Part shown: one piece after another, positions 24,623 through 31,607 of the stretch
Numbering within the stretch: position 1 is the stretch's first letter
Layout: every line of letters starts with the position of its first letter
Assembly: GCA_963666285.1 (NCBI GenBank)
Contig: OY762711.1
DNA length: 64,000 nt
Reading direction: 5' to 3' (one strand)
Source of the DNA: Sedimentisphaerales bacterium
Lineage (GTDB): Bacteria; Planctomycetota; Phycisphaerae; Sedimentisphaerales; SM23-30
The notes under the pieces: model-generated
Databases searched by the model: none
What the model saw: the letters and a program-made list of their open reading frames with translations, nothing else
Told to the model about the DNA's origin: nothing
Made by a program: the position numbers and the translations under genes

Positions 24623-25591
24623 TTACTGCTTGCTCCATATACGCCGGTTAAGGTTCAGCTCTTCGATAATACTCACTGCCAGCATAAGATCATCATAATA
24701 CTTCTCGATCGGCTTGAAACTCAGCAGTGTCTTATACAGGTTCGGCTCAAATATCTCTTCGTCCATTGTTATCGCGACAAAAACAAAGGATGCCGTAAAA
24801 CTCAGCCCGATCTCTTTTCCCGTCTTATACTTATAATTCTTTATCCGCTGCATCAGTGCCGGGCTAAGAATATACCTCGCCTCGATCTGGTCGGTACTAT
24901 AAACCACAAACACACTGTCAAACTCCGGGTCCTCCAGCTTCACCCGCTCCGCCGACGAATCTGCATCTCTCAGAAACTTCAACGGCTTTTTAAAATAATG
25001 GAAACCCGTATTCGGTATCACCAGCGTATAACCGTCGAAGTCCTTATTGAAATCCCCCATGAAATAGATTCCCTTGAATATCGTTCCGATCGGCTTTTCA
25101 TCATCATCTTCATCTCTTGTGCCGACATATTCGGTACACAACTCCGAAAACATAAACTTAGTCTTACCGACCTGCCCTTTTACCAGGTCCTTGCCCCGAT
25201 ATCGGTTATGAACCTCCGGAAACAGCCTGCTTATATTATACAGCGGACTTTCTATATGCTTTTTAGGATAATATTCAAGCTCCGGATCGACAAACTTTAT
25301 TATCCGCTCGATGATATCATCCTTAAAGAATGTGCGGTACGACCCGGCATAATATTTACGCAGCAGAACATAAACACTGCTTATCGCCATTATCGGCAAT
25401 ATCGCACAAAACTTGAACACACCCGTACCAAAAACGCCGATTGCGATAGCTCCTGCTATCGCTGTAACTGTCAGCATCAGGGCATACTTATGCATCTGGC
25501 CCAAAATCGACACCCGGGCATTCTCATACCGTTTCAGGATACCGGCCAGCTCTTTCTCGTAATACTCTTTCAGTTGCTCTTTATTTTTCAC
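24623..25591 (-). CDS. DUF3137-like membrane protein
   Basis: Two N-terminal TMs; VKLEDPEFDSVFVVYSTDQIEARYILSPALM; ELNLNRRIWSK. Confidence 0.8.
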   Translation of the reverse strand: MKNKEQLKEYYEKELAGILKRYENARVSILGQMHKYALMLTVTAIAGAIAIGVFGTGVFKFCAILPIMAISSVYVLLRKYYAGSYRTFFKDDIIERIIKFVDPELEYYPKKHIESPLYNISRLFPEVHNRYRGKDLVKGQVGKTKFMFSELCTEYVGTRDEDDDEKPIGTIFKGIYFMGDFNKDFDGYTLVIPNTGFHYFKKPLKFLRDADSSAERVKLEDPEFDSVFVVYSTDQIEARYILSPALMQRIKNYKYKTGKEIGLSFTASFVFVAITMDEEIFEPNLYKTLLSFKPIEKYYDDLMLAVSIIEELNLNRRIWSKQ

Positions 25592-25898
25592 TTCGACCGC
25601 CTGTCATATCTGCTATTACCAAAACCGTCCCAAAACTAAGGACACCTTCTCCCAGCCATTATACCGCAACTTCTCTCCATGCCATACACCTTTTTTCCAT
25701 CCTCTTTGAGGCCAGGTATACAACAAATATACATCTTGTATAATAGGCAGGGTTGGCACAGTCACCACACAACCATTACTATTTCAAAACCGCCAATTCT
25801 CGCGTCAGCTTTAAATTTAATCGTCCGCAAATGCGGAAACCTTCTATCCATTTCATATTTTTTTCGTGAATTTTTGTGTATTTCTATGAAGCCAGAAT

Positions 25899-26282
25899 GC
25901 AACATTAATTTTCTAATTTTATTCATTTTTGCTATAATTCCTTTATCTTGCAAAGGATAGGGCTCTGCTGAGGAGCAACCCGAGCGTTGCAAGTTGTCGA
26001 GAAGCCGGGGCGGTTTTACACCGCCTCGTTTTTTGCTTTTTGACCTTATGCGATAAACCTATTTAAAACAATTTTCGCGTAGCGAATCATTATTTACCTG
26101 ATTGTTTCATCTTTCTATCCGGAGTGTCCGAGGCTGTATTTTACGCCATGGTTCCATTATATATATTGCGATACGGCTTAATTTTCGTGTCAGGTTCAAA
26201 ACCCAAATGCACGACCAAGGTTCCGTATCGATTTCAATCGGGCAAAATCATAGGTAATATTTATATTTTACTTATATTGGTA
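25899..26282 (-). ncRNA. Putative bridge/seekRNA region of IS110 element A (boundaries approximate)
   Basis: Stem 26169-26176/26223-26230 encloses two arms matching the insertion-site flanks, around an inner hairpin at 26193-26203. Confidence 0.65.
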
Positions 26283-27329
26283 TCAAACACTTTGCAATTC
26301 AGGCATCTGCCAACTTGTCCCATCTCGCATCATCGCCCACAATCGTACGAACAACCGTCGGGCTGTAGCTACTATCGCTATTTTTGCACGAGTTTTACTT
26401 CCCCTCTTTATTCTTTCGTATGTTTCTTTTATCCATGGATTCCAACGCAAACCCAGCCAGCAAACCTCAACAAGTAATGCTCGCAATAACCTATTGCCAT
26501 ATTTACTTATCCGCCCATGACGGTCTGTATTACCTGATTGGTACTGACGCGGTGTCATACCAATATAGCTGCCAACTTGTTTGCAATTCTTAAATCTATG
26601 TGGATCATCAATATAAGCTGCAACTGCCTCTGCCAGACGTGGGCCAACTCCGGGAACAGTCTGTAATAGTTTTACCTTTTCATCAGTACTATTTAACTCT
26701 TCCAGTTTATCTTCAACTACTTGCAAAGCGTCTGTTAATTGTTCCAGTAATATAAGCTCGCTCCATAGATTGCCTTTCCAGAGCTCATCTGGTTTAACTT
26801 TATCCATTGGCATAGCCATACTTCTTAACTGTTCCAGATTCTGCTTAGACCAGCACTTTCTGCCTGACGGCAACGAATACGCCTGGGCATTTAATAAAGA
26901 ACGAATAGTATTTTTTACCTGAGTTATCCGTTCTGTAAGGCTCTGGCGATAATTAATTAAAGATCGTTTCTCTCGAATTTCCTTTTTAGGAACATAGACA
27001 GTTGATAAATCTCCTAAAGCAGCACGCTTGGCCAGCCAAAATGCATCCTTTTTATCTGTTTTCTTCTTCAATTTTCTGCCAGACCATTCGCCGGTATTAG
27101 TATTTGCCACTTCATATTTTAATTCCAGGGTGTCAAAAAGGTCACAAATCCAGCCTATGATATCACAAGCCTCAAATACAATAAGATCAGCAGGGTGAGA
27201 TACTGCCAGGTCATGAAGCTCTTGAGGGTTAGTCTTAAACGACTTATATATAGCCTTACAGCTTTTTACCTCATAAAAACAAACTACACTCTTGAATTTT
27301 CCTAAATCAATTGACATAATAGTCTTCAT
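26283..27329 (-). CDS. IS110-family DEDD transposase/recombinase
   Basis: SIDLGK, VFEAC, KTDKKDA, LQTVPGVG, GMTPRQYQSG, GRISKYGN, AIVATARRL. Confidence 0.95.
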   Translation of the reverse strand: MKTIMSIDLGKFKSVVCFYEVKSCKAIYKSFKTNPQELHDLAVSHPADLIVFEACDIIGWICDLFDTLELKYEVANTNTGEWSGRKLKKKTDKKDAFWLAKRAALGDLSTVYVPKKEIREKRSLINYRQSLTERITQVKNTIRSLLNAQAYSLPSGRKCWSKQNLEQLRSMAMPMDKVKPDELWKGNLWSELILLEQLTDALQVVEDKLEELNSTDEKVKLLQTVPGVGPRLAEAVAAYIDDPHRFKNCKQVGSYIGMTPRQYQSGNTDRHGRISKYGNRLLRALLVEVCWLGLRWNPWIKETYERIKRGSKTRAKIAIVATARRLFVRLWAMMRDGTSWQMPELQSV

Positions 27330-27537
27330 AGCCAGAATACTCCGTATAAAATTGGTTAAATATTTGAGCGTCCCTGTGACAGCTCGTGCTAAAATTATTG
27401 TGTATTATAACACAAGCCATGCTACAGGAATATTCTGGCTTTCATTGTATTTTCGTGGTTCTAAAAAAATATTAAAGTACAAGCGTTCTTATCGAGCTAT
27501 AGCTTTAGCGAAGCCTGAAATGAGTATCCTCTTTATT

Positions 27538-28000
27538 CTTTGCGATCTTTGCGGCCTTTGCGAGAGACAAATCCTATCAAAACCACTCTGCTTAATATCA
27601 TTCCAATCTCCAACCAAACCAGCATCGTTAAGGACATAGTAGTTCAGGCATCCCTGCCTGACAATAAACCAGCCGTCACGCAAGCGACTCCTAATTCCTG
27701 GGAACGCCGAGCACCAGCTCGGCATATTCGGCGCCAGCCGATTTAAACTTGGTCACACACCTGTCCTGAGCGAGCGATGCGAGTCGAATAACAGCAATAC
27801 CATCTTTTCTCAGATCTCAGACTTTATTTGTCCTATCTGTCCTATATGTCACATGCGTCATATATGTCCTATTTCCTTTTTCCGTCTCTTCAGTTATTTC
27901 AGTAGTAAAGCATTTTCCCGCCCGCACCAGCTTTAAAAAAAGTTGTAAGCCGTTAGGCGAACACCTTAATTTTTCATTTTTCACTATTCATTTTTCATTT
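27538..28000. repeat. Cluster of REP-like palindromes and 7/9-mer tracts between the two IS110 elements
   Basis: (CTTTGCGNN)x3 at 27538; TCAGGCA..TGCCTGA; GCCGAGC..GCTCGGC; (TGTCCTAT.)n at about 27829; (TTTTCA.)n at about 27970. Confidence 0.6.
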
Positions 28001-28118
28001 AACGAAGCCTCTCTTCTCCCTCCTCGCTTCTAACTCTCTTCATTCGTGAAAATATGAAGAAAAGGCATCCTAAGGTATAATATATACCAAAACAAACTTT
28101 TATACGAAAGGATGCCTC

Positions 28119-29150
28119 ATGAACAACATACATTATATTGGAACAGATTTGCATAGCAACAATATTGAGCTGGCAATTCGTTACAGGCAGAAGGTAATCC
28201 AGAGATATTCTCTGCCGACATCGTTGCCTCCTGTTTTGGAGGTTATAAGCTCCATCAAAGGCAAAAAACAGATGGCAGTAGAGGAAGGCCCCATGGCAGG
28301 CTGGCTTTATCGCGGCGTATTTGGCAAAGTTGACAGGTTTGTAATCGCAGAACCTCGCCGTAACAAGCTGATAAGCTCAGAAGGCGATCATGATGATGAA
28401 ATTGATTCTGCAAAACTTGCAATGCTGCTGGAAGGAGGCCTTTTGAAGGAAGTTTATCATCCTCTAAATAGAGAGCAAGCGGTATTTAAAAAGTGGGTAA
28501 CTCTTTACCATGACAATGTTAAGGATGCAGTAAGAAGTATTAACAAAATCAGAGCCTGTTGTCGTATGGAAGCCATAAGAATACCCAGATATGTAATAAA
28601 AAACCCTGACAAACGTGACAAATGGCTTTCGGAGCTTGAATATACAGACATTGCCGAGCAATTAATGTTGCTGCTTATCGGCTACGATGCAGCTTCCTGC
28701 CAGTGTAGACTTGCCAGGCAAAAAATCATGACTCTAAGTAAATCTTATCCGGTAATTAAGCAATTTCAGGAGCTGCCCGGAGTTGGCATAATACGAGCAG
28801 TAACCTTCCTGGCATATATCGATACGCCATGGAGGTTTAAGAAAAAAAGTCAATTATGGAAATATTGCGGCATTGGACTTGAACGTACAACCAGCGGCAA
28901 AGACAAATATGGCAACTCAAAACCGGCAAAACTTAAATTGCCTTACAACTGTAATCGCACTCTTAAAAATGTAATAATTGGTGCCGCTTTAAGTGCTATC
29001 AGGCAAAAGAATAGTACATATGCCCAGGATTATGAAAGGATGATCTCAAATGGTGTAAATAGATCAAATGCTCGCCATACCGTTGCCAGGAAAATACTGA
29101 CAACTATGTGGGGGATTTGGAAAAGCAGCTTTCAGTATAATACGGATTAA
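28119..29150 (+). CDS. IS110-family DEDD transposase/recombinase
   Basis: YIGTDLH, AVEEG, HDDEIDS, ELPGVG, KYCGIGLERTTSG, HTVARKI. Confidence 0.92.
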   Translation: MNNIHYIGTDLHSNNIELAIRYRQKVIQRYSLPTSLPPVLEVISSIKGKKQMAVEEGPMAGWLYRGVFGKVDRFVIAEPRRNKLISSEGDHDDEIDSAKLAMLLEGGLLKEVYHPLNREQAVFKKWVTLYHDNVKDAVRSINKIRACCRMEAIRIPRYVIKNPDKRDKWLSELEYTDIAEQLMLLLIGYDAASCQCRLARQKIMTLSKSYPVIKQFQELPGVGIIRAVTFLAYIDTPWRFKKKSQLWKYCGIGLERTTSGKDKYGNSKPAKLKLPYNCNRTLKNVIIGAALSAIRQKNSTYAQDYERMISNGVNRSNARHTVARKILTTMWGIWKSSFQYNTD

Positions 29151-29540
29151 GATATCGTAATTTATACTCTTTCAAAATATTATGATTTTCTAATAGTCTT
29201 TTTGCATAACAGCAAAGAGTTCCGTTTCAACCACTGGACAGGCAAGAACTTGAACCCGATTCGTGAATGAACCTTTGCTTTTAGACGTGCCTCTTTTCTT
29301 TTTATGAACTGCCCAAAGGGCATGTTCCCAATAGATGGTTGGCAGCATAATTTAATTTACGGCTATACACAATTTTATAAAAGAATTGACCGAACAGAAA
29401 ATTGTAGTTATTGAAAAAATCGCAAAATTACAAAAAAGATATCTATGACATGTACCTGCTGATGCAATAACTTACAACAAACGTATGGATGCCCTCAAAG
29501 TAATTCATTCGAATTAGAAATTTTTTAACTTGACTTTGAG
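29151..29540 (+). ncRNA. Putative bridge/seekRNA region of IS110 element B (boundaries approximate)
   Basis: Target-like loop 29211-29279 and donor-like loop 29288-29344, with arms matching the target and the element end. Confidence 0.7.
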
Positions 29541-29735
29541 TTCTTCATAGATGGTTTAGCTCTTAGCCCGCCCGCGCGATTCTAAACAATCTCGGCAAAG
29601 CCGGATTAATTATTACTAGTCCCGCCATGAACGACAACATACAGCTGCTGCCAGCAAGCCCGTGGAACAAAAGCCACCCAAAACATCTCAAGCCCTGTCA
29701 AGGGCGACAGAAACTATACTTCATAATGATTTTTC

Positions 29736-31607
29736 TTATTTAAATAATTCTGGAGCAATTAATTTGAGTTCATTATCAACTTCTGTGCGATCATATCCTA
29801 AATCAATTAAAAGATTGCCGTAATTATTAATTGAATCAATTAAATTAGTATGTTGATGGCCGGTTTTACGTGAAAACTCAAGAAATATTTCTATTACCCT
29901 TTTAGCTATTGAAAGAGCTTCTTTTGTTCTGCTGGTTGCCTGGTACAGCATAGCTAGATTGTTTAGGTCTTTAGCTAGGTTCGGATGGTTTGGGCCAAAT
30001 AAAACTTCATCTATTTCTATTGCTCTTAACATTAGTGGTTCAGCCTTTGAATATTGTTTAGAGTAATTGTATAGAGCTGCGAGATTACTTATTGCTGTTG
30101 CTAGACTCGGATGTTGCATTCCATAAGCTTCTTCATAAATAGATATAGATTTGGTAAGTAAGCGTTCAGCTTCAGAAAAGCGACTTATATCTAGGTAATA
30201 ATTTGCAATATTGTTTAAATCTCTCGCTACTGCTGGATGATTTGGCCCGTACAATTTTTGGTCAATTTCAAGTGCTTGTATAAACAGTGGTTCAACTTTT
30301 GACATTTGGCCCGTATGTTCATAATAGGCACCCAGATTATTTAGAGAAAGTGCGGTATTGGGGTGTATTTCTCCATAAGCATTTTTATCAATTTCCAGTG
30401 TACGAAGTAATAGTGGTTCTACCTCAGAAAGTCGATTTGTATCTTTATAAATCATCGCAAGATTATTATACCATGGGGCTAAAATTGAATTATCTTTTCC
30501 TAATGTCTTTATTCCTATTGATATTGCTTTAGTCAACAAATCCTCTGCTTCTGCTAAGCGATTTGTCGCTTGGAATAATTGAGCTAAAACATTATATGCG
30601 ATAGCAATGCTATGATGATCCTCTCCGTAGTATCTATCATATATGTCAATAGCTTTTTTAATATATGACTCAGCAATTTTAAATTTATTAATAGTTTTAT
30701 AAAGTTGTGCTAAGTTAAGATATGCCGAAGCTAAACCTATATAGTCTTTGCCATAATTAGATTTAAATATTTCAATTGCGCGAATCATAAGCTGTTCAGC
30801 TTTAAAAATTCGTCCGGTATTAAAGTACAATTGGGCAAGATTATTTAATGTGATTCCTGTATTGGGATGGTTTTCTCCATATTTAAGTTTATCAGTTTCC
30901 AGTATATTGAGGATAAATGATTCAGCTTTCACGTATTGAGCTGTATGAATGTAAATGCAGGCAAGTTCATTTTTTCTACGATCAATAATATCCTGTAATT
31001 GACTGTATTTTGGTGGGTTATTTAACCATTGCTCTAATTCTGATTGACGGTTAAGCAAATCCTCATGACTCATTGAATTGATTAGTTCCGCATAATCATT
31101 ATTTGATATAGGTGGTAAGTCATCTATTCGCTTTTGCCAATTTGACATGTCTGAAAAATATAAATGATGACTTATCCATGCCCAAAAGTCTCTTGCGATT
31201 CTAGAAATGATAGTTGTTAAATATTCGGGTAGCCAGAATATAACTGGGCTTTGAAAGTGACGTTTCCATTTTTCTCTTGATAAATTTAGTTCCTGAATTA
31301 AATTTATGTTAGTATGGTTGTTGGTTACTAGTGATTCTATATTAGTAATGAAGATAGCTGTTGGTTTATGGTATTTAATTTTAAGCAGAACTTGATCTAA
31401 AATACTTCTACTTGAATCAGTAATTTCAATTATAAGAATATTTTTGTGAATTGCATTTATATTTGAAATAATGCTATTTCTAATTTCGATTGTTTGGAAT
31501 GTAGCAACTGCAAAAGAGCATGTACCTTCGCTTATTTCAATCAGTTTATTAAGATGGTTGAAGTTTTGTTTACTTTCATCAGTTAATATTGTATCAATGT
31601 CTATCAT
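29736..31607 (-). CDS. TPR-repeat protein (kinesin-light-chain-like 42-aa repeats) with a degenerate N-terminal alpha/beta domain
   Basis: Repeated YGxxHPxxAxxLNNLAxLY; N-terminal LNLSRE...IFWLP...ARDFWAW; low GC. Confidence 0.85.
   Translation of the reverse strand: MIDIDTILTDESKQNFNHLNKLIEISEGTCSFAVATFQTIEIRNSIISNINAIHKNILIIEITDSSRSILDQVLLKIKYHKPTAIFITNIESLVTNNHTNINLIQELNLSREKWKRHFQSPVIFWLPEYLTTIISRIARDFWAWISHHLYFSDMSNWQKRIDDLPPISNNDYAELINSMSHEDLLNRQSELEQWLNNPPKYSQLQDIIDRRKNELACIYIHTAQYVKAESFILNILETDKLKYGENHPNTGITLNNLAQLYFNTGRIFKAEQLMIRAIEIFKSNYGKDYIGLASAYLNLAQLYKTINKFKIAESYIKKAIDIYDRYYGEDHHSIAIAYNVLAQLFQATNRLAEAEDLLTKAISIGIKTLGKDNSILAPWYNNLAMIYKDTNRLSEVEPLLLRTLEIDKNAYGEIHPNTALSLNNLGAYYEHTGQMSKVEPLFIQALEIDQKLYGPNHPAVARDLNNIANYYLDISRFSEAERLLTKSISIYEEAYGMQHPSLATAISNLAALYNYSKQYSKAEPLMLRAIEIDEVLFGPNHPNLAKDLNNLAMLYQATSRTKEALSIAKRVIEIFLEFSRKTGHQHTNLIDSINNYGNLLIDLGYDRTEVDNELKLIAPELFK

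Follow-up and report, generated by a model that had tools for sequence, protein, structure and literature searches.

A divergent IS1111-type insertion sequence and its probable downstream guide RNA in a Sedimentisphaerales genome

The 64,000-nt stretch of contig OY762711.1 (assembly GCA_963666285.1) analysed here, referred to as the window, comes from a Sedimentisphaerales bacterium of the Planctomycetota and carries an insertion sequence, element B, within 28041–29560. We hold it probable, at about 0.88, that element B is an intact and recently mobile insertion sequence of the IS110/IS1111 group, whose recombinase is guided by an RNA encoded downstream of its gene (29211–29344). The clade to which it belongs is divergent and mostly metagenomic. 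The bridge/seekRNA mechanism has been known since 2024, and element B is a well-supported new and divergent member of that world, not a new mechanism. A first-pass annotation of the window had proposed two new candidate programmable recombinases, in element B and in its neighbour, element A; they stand as new members, while the novelty of the mechanism does not, as it was published in 2024. Positions of all features are collected in Table 1.

The 6.35-Mb genome holds three copies of 28041–29560 at 100% identity. All that their flanks have in common is TTCGTG to the left and GTT to the right, which defines the mobile unit as AAAATATG...CATAGA plus one TG; since the 2-bp core TG is present at both junctions, the ends can equally be written as 28047–29551. 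The left target reads ATTCGTG and TTTCGTG in the other two copies. Uninterrupted paralogous sites in the genome read TTCGTGGTT, in the wider context ...TCATTCGTGGTTTAGCTCTTAGCCC... and ...GAATTTTCGTGGTTGACAATC..., which places the insertion site at TTCG-TG-GTT. The empty site of the first-pass annotation, CATTCG-TG-GTTT, is thus borne out by the flanks of the three copies and by these paralogues, which are the only uninterrupted sites seen, the empty form of element B's own locus not being among them. All three insertions lie in TTCG-TG-GTT, with no target duplication beyond the shared TG. In Logan contigs, a 1514-nt element B contig has a depth of ~80, against ~30 in the flank. A contig joint from 28031 to 29552 was considered as an empty locus and rejected, the intervening letters belonging to a paralogous uninterrupted repeat.

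The same boundaries are found in relatives. Of 2465 candidates from a protein search, 1349 proteins reached E ≤ 0.001; the best 120 of these are 56–92% identical to the element B recombinase and lie mostly on contigs of 1.2–3 kb. From 362 confirmed metagenome loci, 80 were analysed as DNA (54–67% identity), and a scan of a genome collection with the single protein added one locus only (L004, 77%); these 81 loci are the homologue set for all that follows on ends, guides and RNA. Loci L006–L010, from related genomes, were left out of the analysis. Among relatives of the source genome, 6 of 61 have a match at E ≤ 1e-30, its own genome counted. Both element ends are conserved across the 81 loci, up to AAGATATG... 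and ...CATAGGTG, and in alignments they are sharply bounded, at AAGATATGAAGAG... on the left (AAAATATG instead in four loci) and at ...CTTGACTTTGAGCTCTTCATAGGTG on the right. The subterminal inverted repeat of element B (ATGAAGAA/TTCTTCAT) is 8 bp long, with 5 and 3 nt between it and the core; in homologues it is ATGAAGAG with CTCTTCAT, both sides having altered together. TTGAC is kept in most of the homologue right ends listed.

A well-built but immobile relic, with its three copies made by segmental duplication of the surrounding repeat, would also account for identical copies. Copies 1 and 2 do have 16 more right-flank bases in common (GTTTAGCTCTTAGCCCGCC), because both lie in one repeat family, and there are 3 copies only, though 20 uninterrupted ATTCGTGGTT sites remain. 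Against this, the three copies diverge in left flank directly outside TTCGTG, the right flank of copy 3 is different, copy identity ends exactly at the junctions that the guides predict, and the recombinase frame is intact. We regard the relic as very improbable.

The downstream non-coding region would form two loops, one with arms that match the target flanks and one with arms that match the element's own ends. Every arm and stem string quoted in the first-pass annotation is present where it was placed, and the arm matches were compared with chance by shuffling the 396-nt non-coding region 20,000 times with dinucleotide content preserved. Single arms recur by chance (ATTCGTG in 328 shuffles, AACCAC in 2,340 and ATAGATG in 541); the two target arms, ordered as in the element and within a 60-nt span, turned up in 5 of the 20,000, and all three arms together in none. 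In the genome itself, copies 1 and 2 match target-loop arm 2 at 7/7 positions and copy 3 at 6/7, while AACCAC is matched by all three copies, in copy 3 over 8 nt (GTGGTTGA).

Covariation of guides and targets across homologues, a test set beforehand by the first-pass annotation, came out strongly positive on both flanks. As the element ends are sharply bounded in alignments, the flanks of each locus could be defined without reference to the loops; shuffles reassigned flanks among loci, with one locus kept per distinct guide. On the right, the 6 nt past the core were compared with the reverse complement of arm 1 at 58 loci, of which 12 match at all six positions, 22 at five, 17 at four, 5 at three, 1 at two and 1 at one. 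The 24 unique guides give 108 matches in 144 positions, against 49.3 ± 6.2 when shuffled, and 0 of 10,000 shuffles score as high. On the left, the 5 nt before GTG were compared with arm 2 at 66 loci; the 22 unique guides match at 74 of 110 positions (shuffled 49.9 ± 4.5; 0 of 10,000 as high). The outermost of the five positions is mostly unmatched, and hence the left guide is 4 nt plus GTG, that is, ATTCGTG.

These results bear directly on whether the recombinase might find TTCGTGGTT by protein–DNA contacts alone, with the downstream structure serving mRNA 3'-end stability or antisense functions and the arm matches being incidental. Members of the clade hardly vary in the core GTG, so the protein could read part of the site. 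However, the variable arm positions shift with the flanks in 22–24 independent guides, with 0 of 10,000 shuffles as good; the three arm matches of this copy occur in 0 of 20,000 shuffles; and published IS1111 elements require the downstream RNA for transposition (PMC11187229). Protein-only targeting is regarded as very improbable.

On the donor side, all 63 aligned homologues have ATAGGTG as arm 2 and the window alone has ATAGATG, and the right end is correspondingly CATAGGTG in homologues and CATAGATG in the window. TTTTTA (29299–29304), absent from the first-pass annotation, is most likely the donor arm for the left end. In the homologues this other arm is TTTTTAT in four loci with the left end AAAATATG, and TCTGCAT in the rest, with the left end AAGATATG. 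The base after the donor-arm GTG equals the first right-flank base of the target in 17 of 23 distinct combinations, where shuffles give 8.1 and 0 of 10,000 reach 17; neither of the two positions that follow it tracks the right flank. Judging from these sequences, this base could equally reflect an IS621-like handshake or an RNA–RNA contact with target arm 1.

Folding of the region into two loops, one for the target and one for the donor, is supported by compensatory changes in homologues, in which the downstream trailer is conserved, starting right behind the stop codon. The alignment comprised the window and 63 distinct segments of the 81 loci, after removal of duplicates and truncated loci. 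RNAalifold returned 23 pairs, 14 of them compensatory, covering the outer target-loop stem and the outer and inner donor-loop stems; the inner target-loop helix GGAC/GTCC was added and the pairs were recounted. Pairing is found in 97.6% of 1724 alignment cells, against 30–46% with partners slid by 1–3 columns; 17 of 27 pairs have compensatory changes on both sides, and none of 500 column shuffles matches the observed value in any of five structure measures. G-U pairs occur often (UG 11 at columns 10/83, UG 11 at 103/185, GU 14 at 127/162). On the opposite strand they would be A-C mismatches, so it is the gene's strand that folds. TGCCC-AAA-GGGCA stands at 29310–29322 in the donor loop. One detail of the first-pass annotation falls: its inner CAAG/CTTG stem of the target loop cannot form because a 2-nt loop would remain, and the energy model pairs UGG/CCG and CAGG/CUUG. 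Very improbable, too, is that the stems act as DNA, as single-stranded hairpins or subterminal protein-binding sites: covariation cannot separate RNA from single-stranded DNA and the region lies inside the long right end, but the structure stops ~200 nt short of the element end, whose own motif is conserved, the G-U pairs suit RNA of the gene's strand, and the modelled protein fold is that of a recombinase solved with its bridge RNA.

The recombinase itself is a divergent but full-length member of the IS110 family. PF02371, the C-terminal domain, matches at E 4.7e-10 and is the sole Pfam domain at the default threshold, and the NCBIfam model 'IS110 family RNA-guided transposase' (NF033542) covers the full length (6–336 on residues 1–340 of 343; E 4.2e-27). 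The DEDD domain, PF01548, is listed for most homologues. An AlphaFold2 model (predicted local distance difference test, pLDDT, 86.2; predicted template-modelling score, pTM, 0.70) has as its best Foldseek matches the IS621 chains 8wt9/8wt6, from synaptic complexes with bridge RNA, at E 1.7e-13 and template-modelling (TM) scores of 0.58–0.62; matches to IS621 and ISCro4 together span TM 0.55–0.62 overall, in alignments of 356–365 columns. Among 52 clade sequences, D10, E55/E56, D90, D93, D96 and S259-G260 are invariant, and the acidic residues and S259, candidates for the catalytic DEDD set and its serine, stand at places comparable to those of D11, E60, D102, D105 and S241 in IS621 (PMC11208160, PMC11208158), as judged by sequence position. 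The IS1111-group motif GL-P----S(t)G is departed from, reading GIGLERTTSG with SG kept and leucine for proline, and the clade consensus is identical. The nearest plasmid-borne annotated IS110-family genes are 23–26% identical.

Several observations weigh against an RNA-guided, mobile element B. The match between guide and flank is poor in some homologues: 1/5 in L004 and L024 and 2/5 in L053, L062 and L075 on the left, 2/6 in L085 and 3/6 in L057 and L081 on the right. Donor-side covariation is weak, though consistent, because each change is a single evolutionary event, and the left-end donor arm matches over 6 nt only, one of them as G-U. Taken alone, this copy's fold (144 nt) is only slightly more stable than those of shuffles (z-score −1.92; 7 of 200 equally good), so the case for structure rests on the family and not on single-copy energy; the inner target-loop helix typical of the family, GGAC/GTCC, has degenerated in this copy, and the whole-region fold (410 nt) was rejected as evidence, with z −1.20. 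An Rfam search with all families, at E up to 1 over 25500–30500, gave as sole match a chance mir-234 (E 0.3) in the leader hairpin. For the protein, PF01548 reaches only E 0.069, the NF033542 score is 95.2 bits against a curated cut-off of 140, and a PDB profile search with the 52 clade members matched 9mty_A alone (E 0.0023). The circle junction proposed as a check by the first-pass annotation was searched for in assembled contigs of sequencing runs and none was seen; element B sequence occurs in four runs, all Logan contigs from two studies, with no RNA run, and the best-matching contig runs may be the genome's own source sample and are then not independent.

As the first-pass annotation had it, element B is IS1111-type; it agrees with that type in its downstream RNA, its subterminal repeat and the published arm order. 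IS1111 elements carry the longer non-coding end, which holds the guide RNA, downstream of the gene (PMC11187229, PMC11208160); here the left end has 70 nt (28049–28118) and the right end 403 nt (29151–29553), with the RNA at 29211–29344. Subterminal inverted repeats in the type are 7–17 bp, those of element B 8 bp. In IS1111 seekRNAs the top-strand match lies 5' of the bottom-strand match and the two overlap in the target (PMC11187229), and in element B AACCAC (29229) is 5' of ATTCGTG (29259), both covering GTG. Altogether, the two-loop non-coding structure has arms matching flanks and ends around a shared core. The sequence is distant from characterised IS1111 members, and the placement is one by features. 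ISEc11, ISPa11, ISKpn4 and ISPst6 (PMC11187229) resemble element B in recombinase length (330–350 aa, against 343), in a long downstream non-coding region with a subterminal inverted repeat, and in two short target matches that overlap at the crossover, top-strand match first. Their long seekRNAs have 148–172 nt (PMC13604230), compared with ~135 nt for the element B RNA module, and the target of element B, the edge of a phased heptad array, is unlike theirs (PMC13604230).

IS621 and ISCro4 (PMC11208160, PMC11208158; PDB 8wt6, 8wt9, 9t56) have the overall protein fold of the element B model, a two-loop RNA with both loops reading the top strand to one side of the core and the bottom strand to the other, and a 2-nt core, CT in theirs and TG in element B (GTG in most of the clade). 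Their RNA lies in the left end, whereas that of element B lies in the right end with the arm order reversed, and element B has the longer subterminal repeat. Like IS621, element B has a position that would read the non-cognate partner; handshake guides in IS621 extend top-strand arms, while the handshake-like base of element B is beside the bottom-strand arm of the donor loop. In the parts of the literature consulted, no description was found of a donor-loop base reading the target's right flank in IS1111-type RNAs. ISPpu9 of Pseudomonas putida (IS110 family, PMC12288879), compared by description only, likewise targets an abundant intergenic repeat and has a downstream small RNA gene, but sits in a palindromic REP (repetitive extragenic palindromic) sequence and not in direct, 10-bp-phased heptads.

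By analogy with these systems, we infer that the structure works as RNA bound to the recombinase, that the excised circle is the donor and that the circle junction makes a promoter. Element B would excise as a circle joined at TG, and circularisation would bring TTGACT (29530–29535), a 17-nt spacer and GAAAAT across the junction into a candidate junction promoter, for which there is precedent (PMC13604230); a consensus promoter scan of the linear element found no + strand site. The junction transcript would supply both recombinase and guide RNA (~135 nt, on the strand of the gene). In the target loop, arm 1 would pair with the top strand of core and right flank (GTG-GTT[GA]) and arm 2 with the bottom strand of left flank and core (ATTCG-TG), and the donor loop would read the joined circle ends (...ATAGA-TG-AAAA...) likewise. 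Strand exchange at the shared TG core would then place the element where an array of TTCGTG heptads, phased at 10 bp, has its 3' edge. The leader hairpin (28064–28116) encloses a conserved TATAAT (28076–28081), and the AGGA ribosome-binding site is paired within it. The hairpin resembles the read-through protection of other insertion sequences, and a damping of translation is possible.

Table 1. Element B, its predicted guide RNA module and the neighbouring element A in the window
Feature	Position	Strand	Basis or remark
Element B body, 1505 bp incl. right-hand TG	28049..29553	+	three identical copies, flanks diverging outside TTCGTG...GTT
Left target flank ATTCG + core TG	28042..28048	+	flanks of three copies; equals target-loop arm 2 (29259-29265)
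Right target flank GTT	29554..29556	+	shared by the three copies
Left subterminal inverted repeat ATGAAGAA	28054..28061	+	reverse complement of 29541-29548
5' leader hairpin, GGCATCCT (28064-28071) with AGGATGCC (28109-28116)	28064..28116	+	both halves conserved in 5' alignment
Recombinase gene, 343 aa	28119..29150	+	intact open frame; IS110-family fold: RuvC-like N-domain, coiled coil, Tnp domain
Target-binding loop module	29211..29279	+	sequence, folding, stem covariation, arm-flank covariation
Target-loop closing stems	AGCAAAG 29211-29217/CTTTGCT 29273-29279; GTTC 29219-29222/GAAC 29269-29272	+	
Target-loop arm 1, (TC)AACCAC	29227-29234	+	complementary to top-strand GTG+GTT(GA)
Target-loop inner hairpin	about 29235-29258	+	
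Target-loop arm 2, ATTCGTG	29259-29265	+	equals left flank + core
AA after target-loop arm 2	29266-29267	+	equals element's first two bases
Donor-binding loop module	29288..29344	+	sequence, folding, stem covariation
Donor-loop outer stem, TGCC/GGCA	29288-29291/29341-29344	+	
Donor-loop arm 1, TTTTTA	29299-29304	+	complementary to left-end TGAAAA, one G-U
Donor-loop inner stem, GAACTGCCC with GGGCATGTTC	29306-29327	+	
Donor-loop arm 2, ATAGATG	29331-29337	+	equals right end + core (29547-29553)
GTT after donor-loop arm 2	29338-29340	+	equals right target flank
Right end: TTGACT (29530-29535), subterminal repeat TTCTTCAT (29541-29548), AGA, core TG	29530..29553	+	sequence
Element A, second IS1111-type element	25880-27455	-	recombinase 26283-27329, minus strand; 9 genomic copies

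In this genome, TTCGTG-like words recur at 10-bp spacing in arrays, and the 9-mer TTCGTGGTT lies at their 3' edge. Examples with three such heptads at this spacing and then GTT are the region around 4621 of the window (C1:5988621), C1:4648834, C1:5184420 and C1:5300732, and a count with a degenerate pattern gives 22 + 36 phased triples genome-wide. Plain TTCGTG is rarer than composition predicts, at 1489 occurrences observed against 2809 expected. Among distinct homologue left flanks, 19 of 61 have a second heptad copy 9–11 nt upstream, compared with 17 of 1620 random positions in the same loci.

Element A abuts the same TTCGTGGTT 9-mer in the reversed direction, so that the opposite orientation of the two elements described in the first-pass annotation holds, as does the dissimilarity of their transposases (27% identity over 164 residues; hhalign probability 96% over residues 92–336). 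Its recombinase scores 213.5 bits, above the NCBIfam IS110 cut-off, and has the motif GMTPRQYQSG. The crossover of element B is at TTCG-TG-GTT and that of element A about 2–4 bp further left, within the TTTC before GTGGTT; the trailer of element A contains CACGAAA (about 26189) and GTGCATTT, fitting its own flanks. Two unlike elements on one landing site is thus what stands of the proposal that they converged on a safe harbour; convergence and safe harbour would be interpretations of it. Relatives of element A are found in only 2 of 201 genomes of the phylum, its own genome counted.

Some further observations concern the surroundings of the elements. To the right of the target, the DNA at 29557–29640 (with paralogues, e.g. 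at C1:5613182) is a modular repeat found at many sites, made up of GTTTAGCTCTTAGCCC..., a short GC hairpin, GCGAATTATTCCTGATGTCAACGTACATCAGGACACC and then TTTTCAT runs. In a second sample, a 1171-nt contig is identical to 28070–28991 and then continues leftwards for 249 nt unlike the window, and cover is missing at 29058–29219, which suggests a variant or rearranged copy of element B there. Among the homologues, ...GCCATAGGT... adjoins the left end in L024 and L025 and is similar to the right end of the element itself; the right end of L090 borders on diverged left-end-like sequence (a tandem or nested copy); and in L063 the last 15 nt of the right end are duplicated. One sub-clade (L030, L033, L042, L050, L067, L080) has the guides ATCCGTG and TGTCGG, and its flanks, judged by eye, have a tRNA-Phe-like anticodon stem-loop (the loop with GAA), a variable loop and a T-arm, with an upstream part that is not D-arm-like. 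These flanks may be a partial tRNA copy, e.g. an integration-site repeat. ARAGORN found no intact gene in the six loci, as expected if the element splits the sequence and otherwise uninformative.

Beyond element B itself, a broader reading can be offered more tentatively, at somewhat short of even odds: that a large, uncharacterised IS1111-like clade is specialised on the 3' edges of heptad arrays, with guides retuned to the heptad of each host (ATTCGTG, ATCTGTG, ATCCGTG, CTCTGTG and others) and a handshake-like base in the donor loop. The reading of the first flank base would there be either a handshake by the bottom-strand arm or a loop-loop RNA contact.

The picture of how bridge/seekRNA elements work is unchanged by element B. 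Its main interest lies in a natural series of retuned guides, in the heptad-array target and in the handshake-like position. With 22–24 guide variants in one clade that match their own insertion sites, it offers a natural and internally consistent case of guide reprogramming. Because the sequence of its recombinase diverges widely from those of IS621, ISCro4 and the IS1111 elements tested so far, the enzyme is a candidate for a wider toolbox of programmable recombinases. The phased heptad arrays, as landing sites of two unrelated guide-RNA elements, give a handle on array ends and on their stability.

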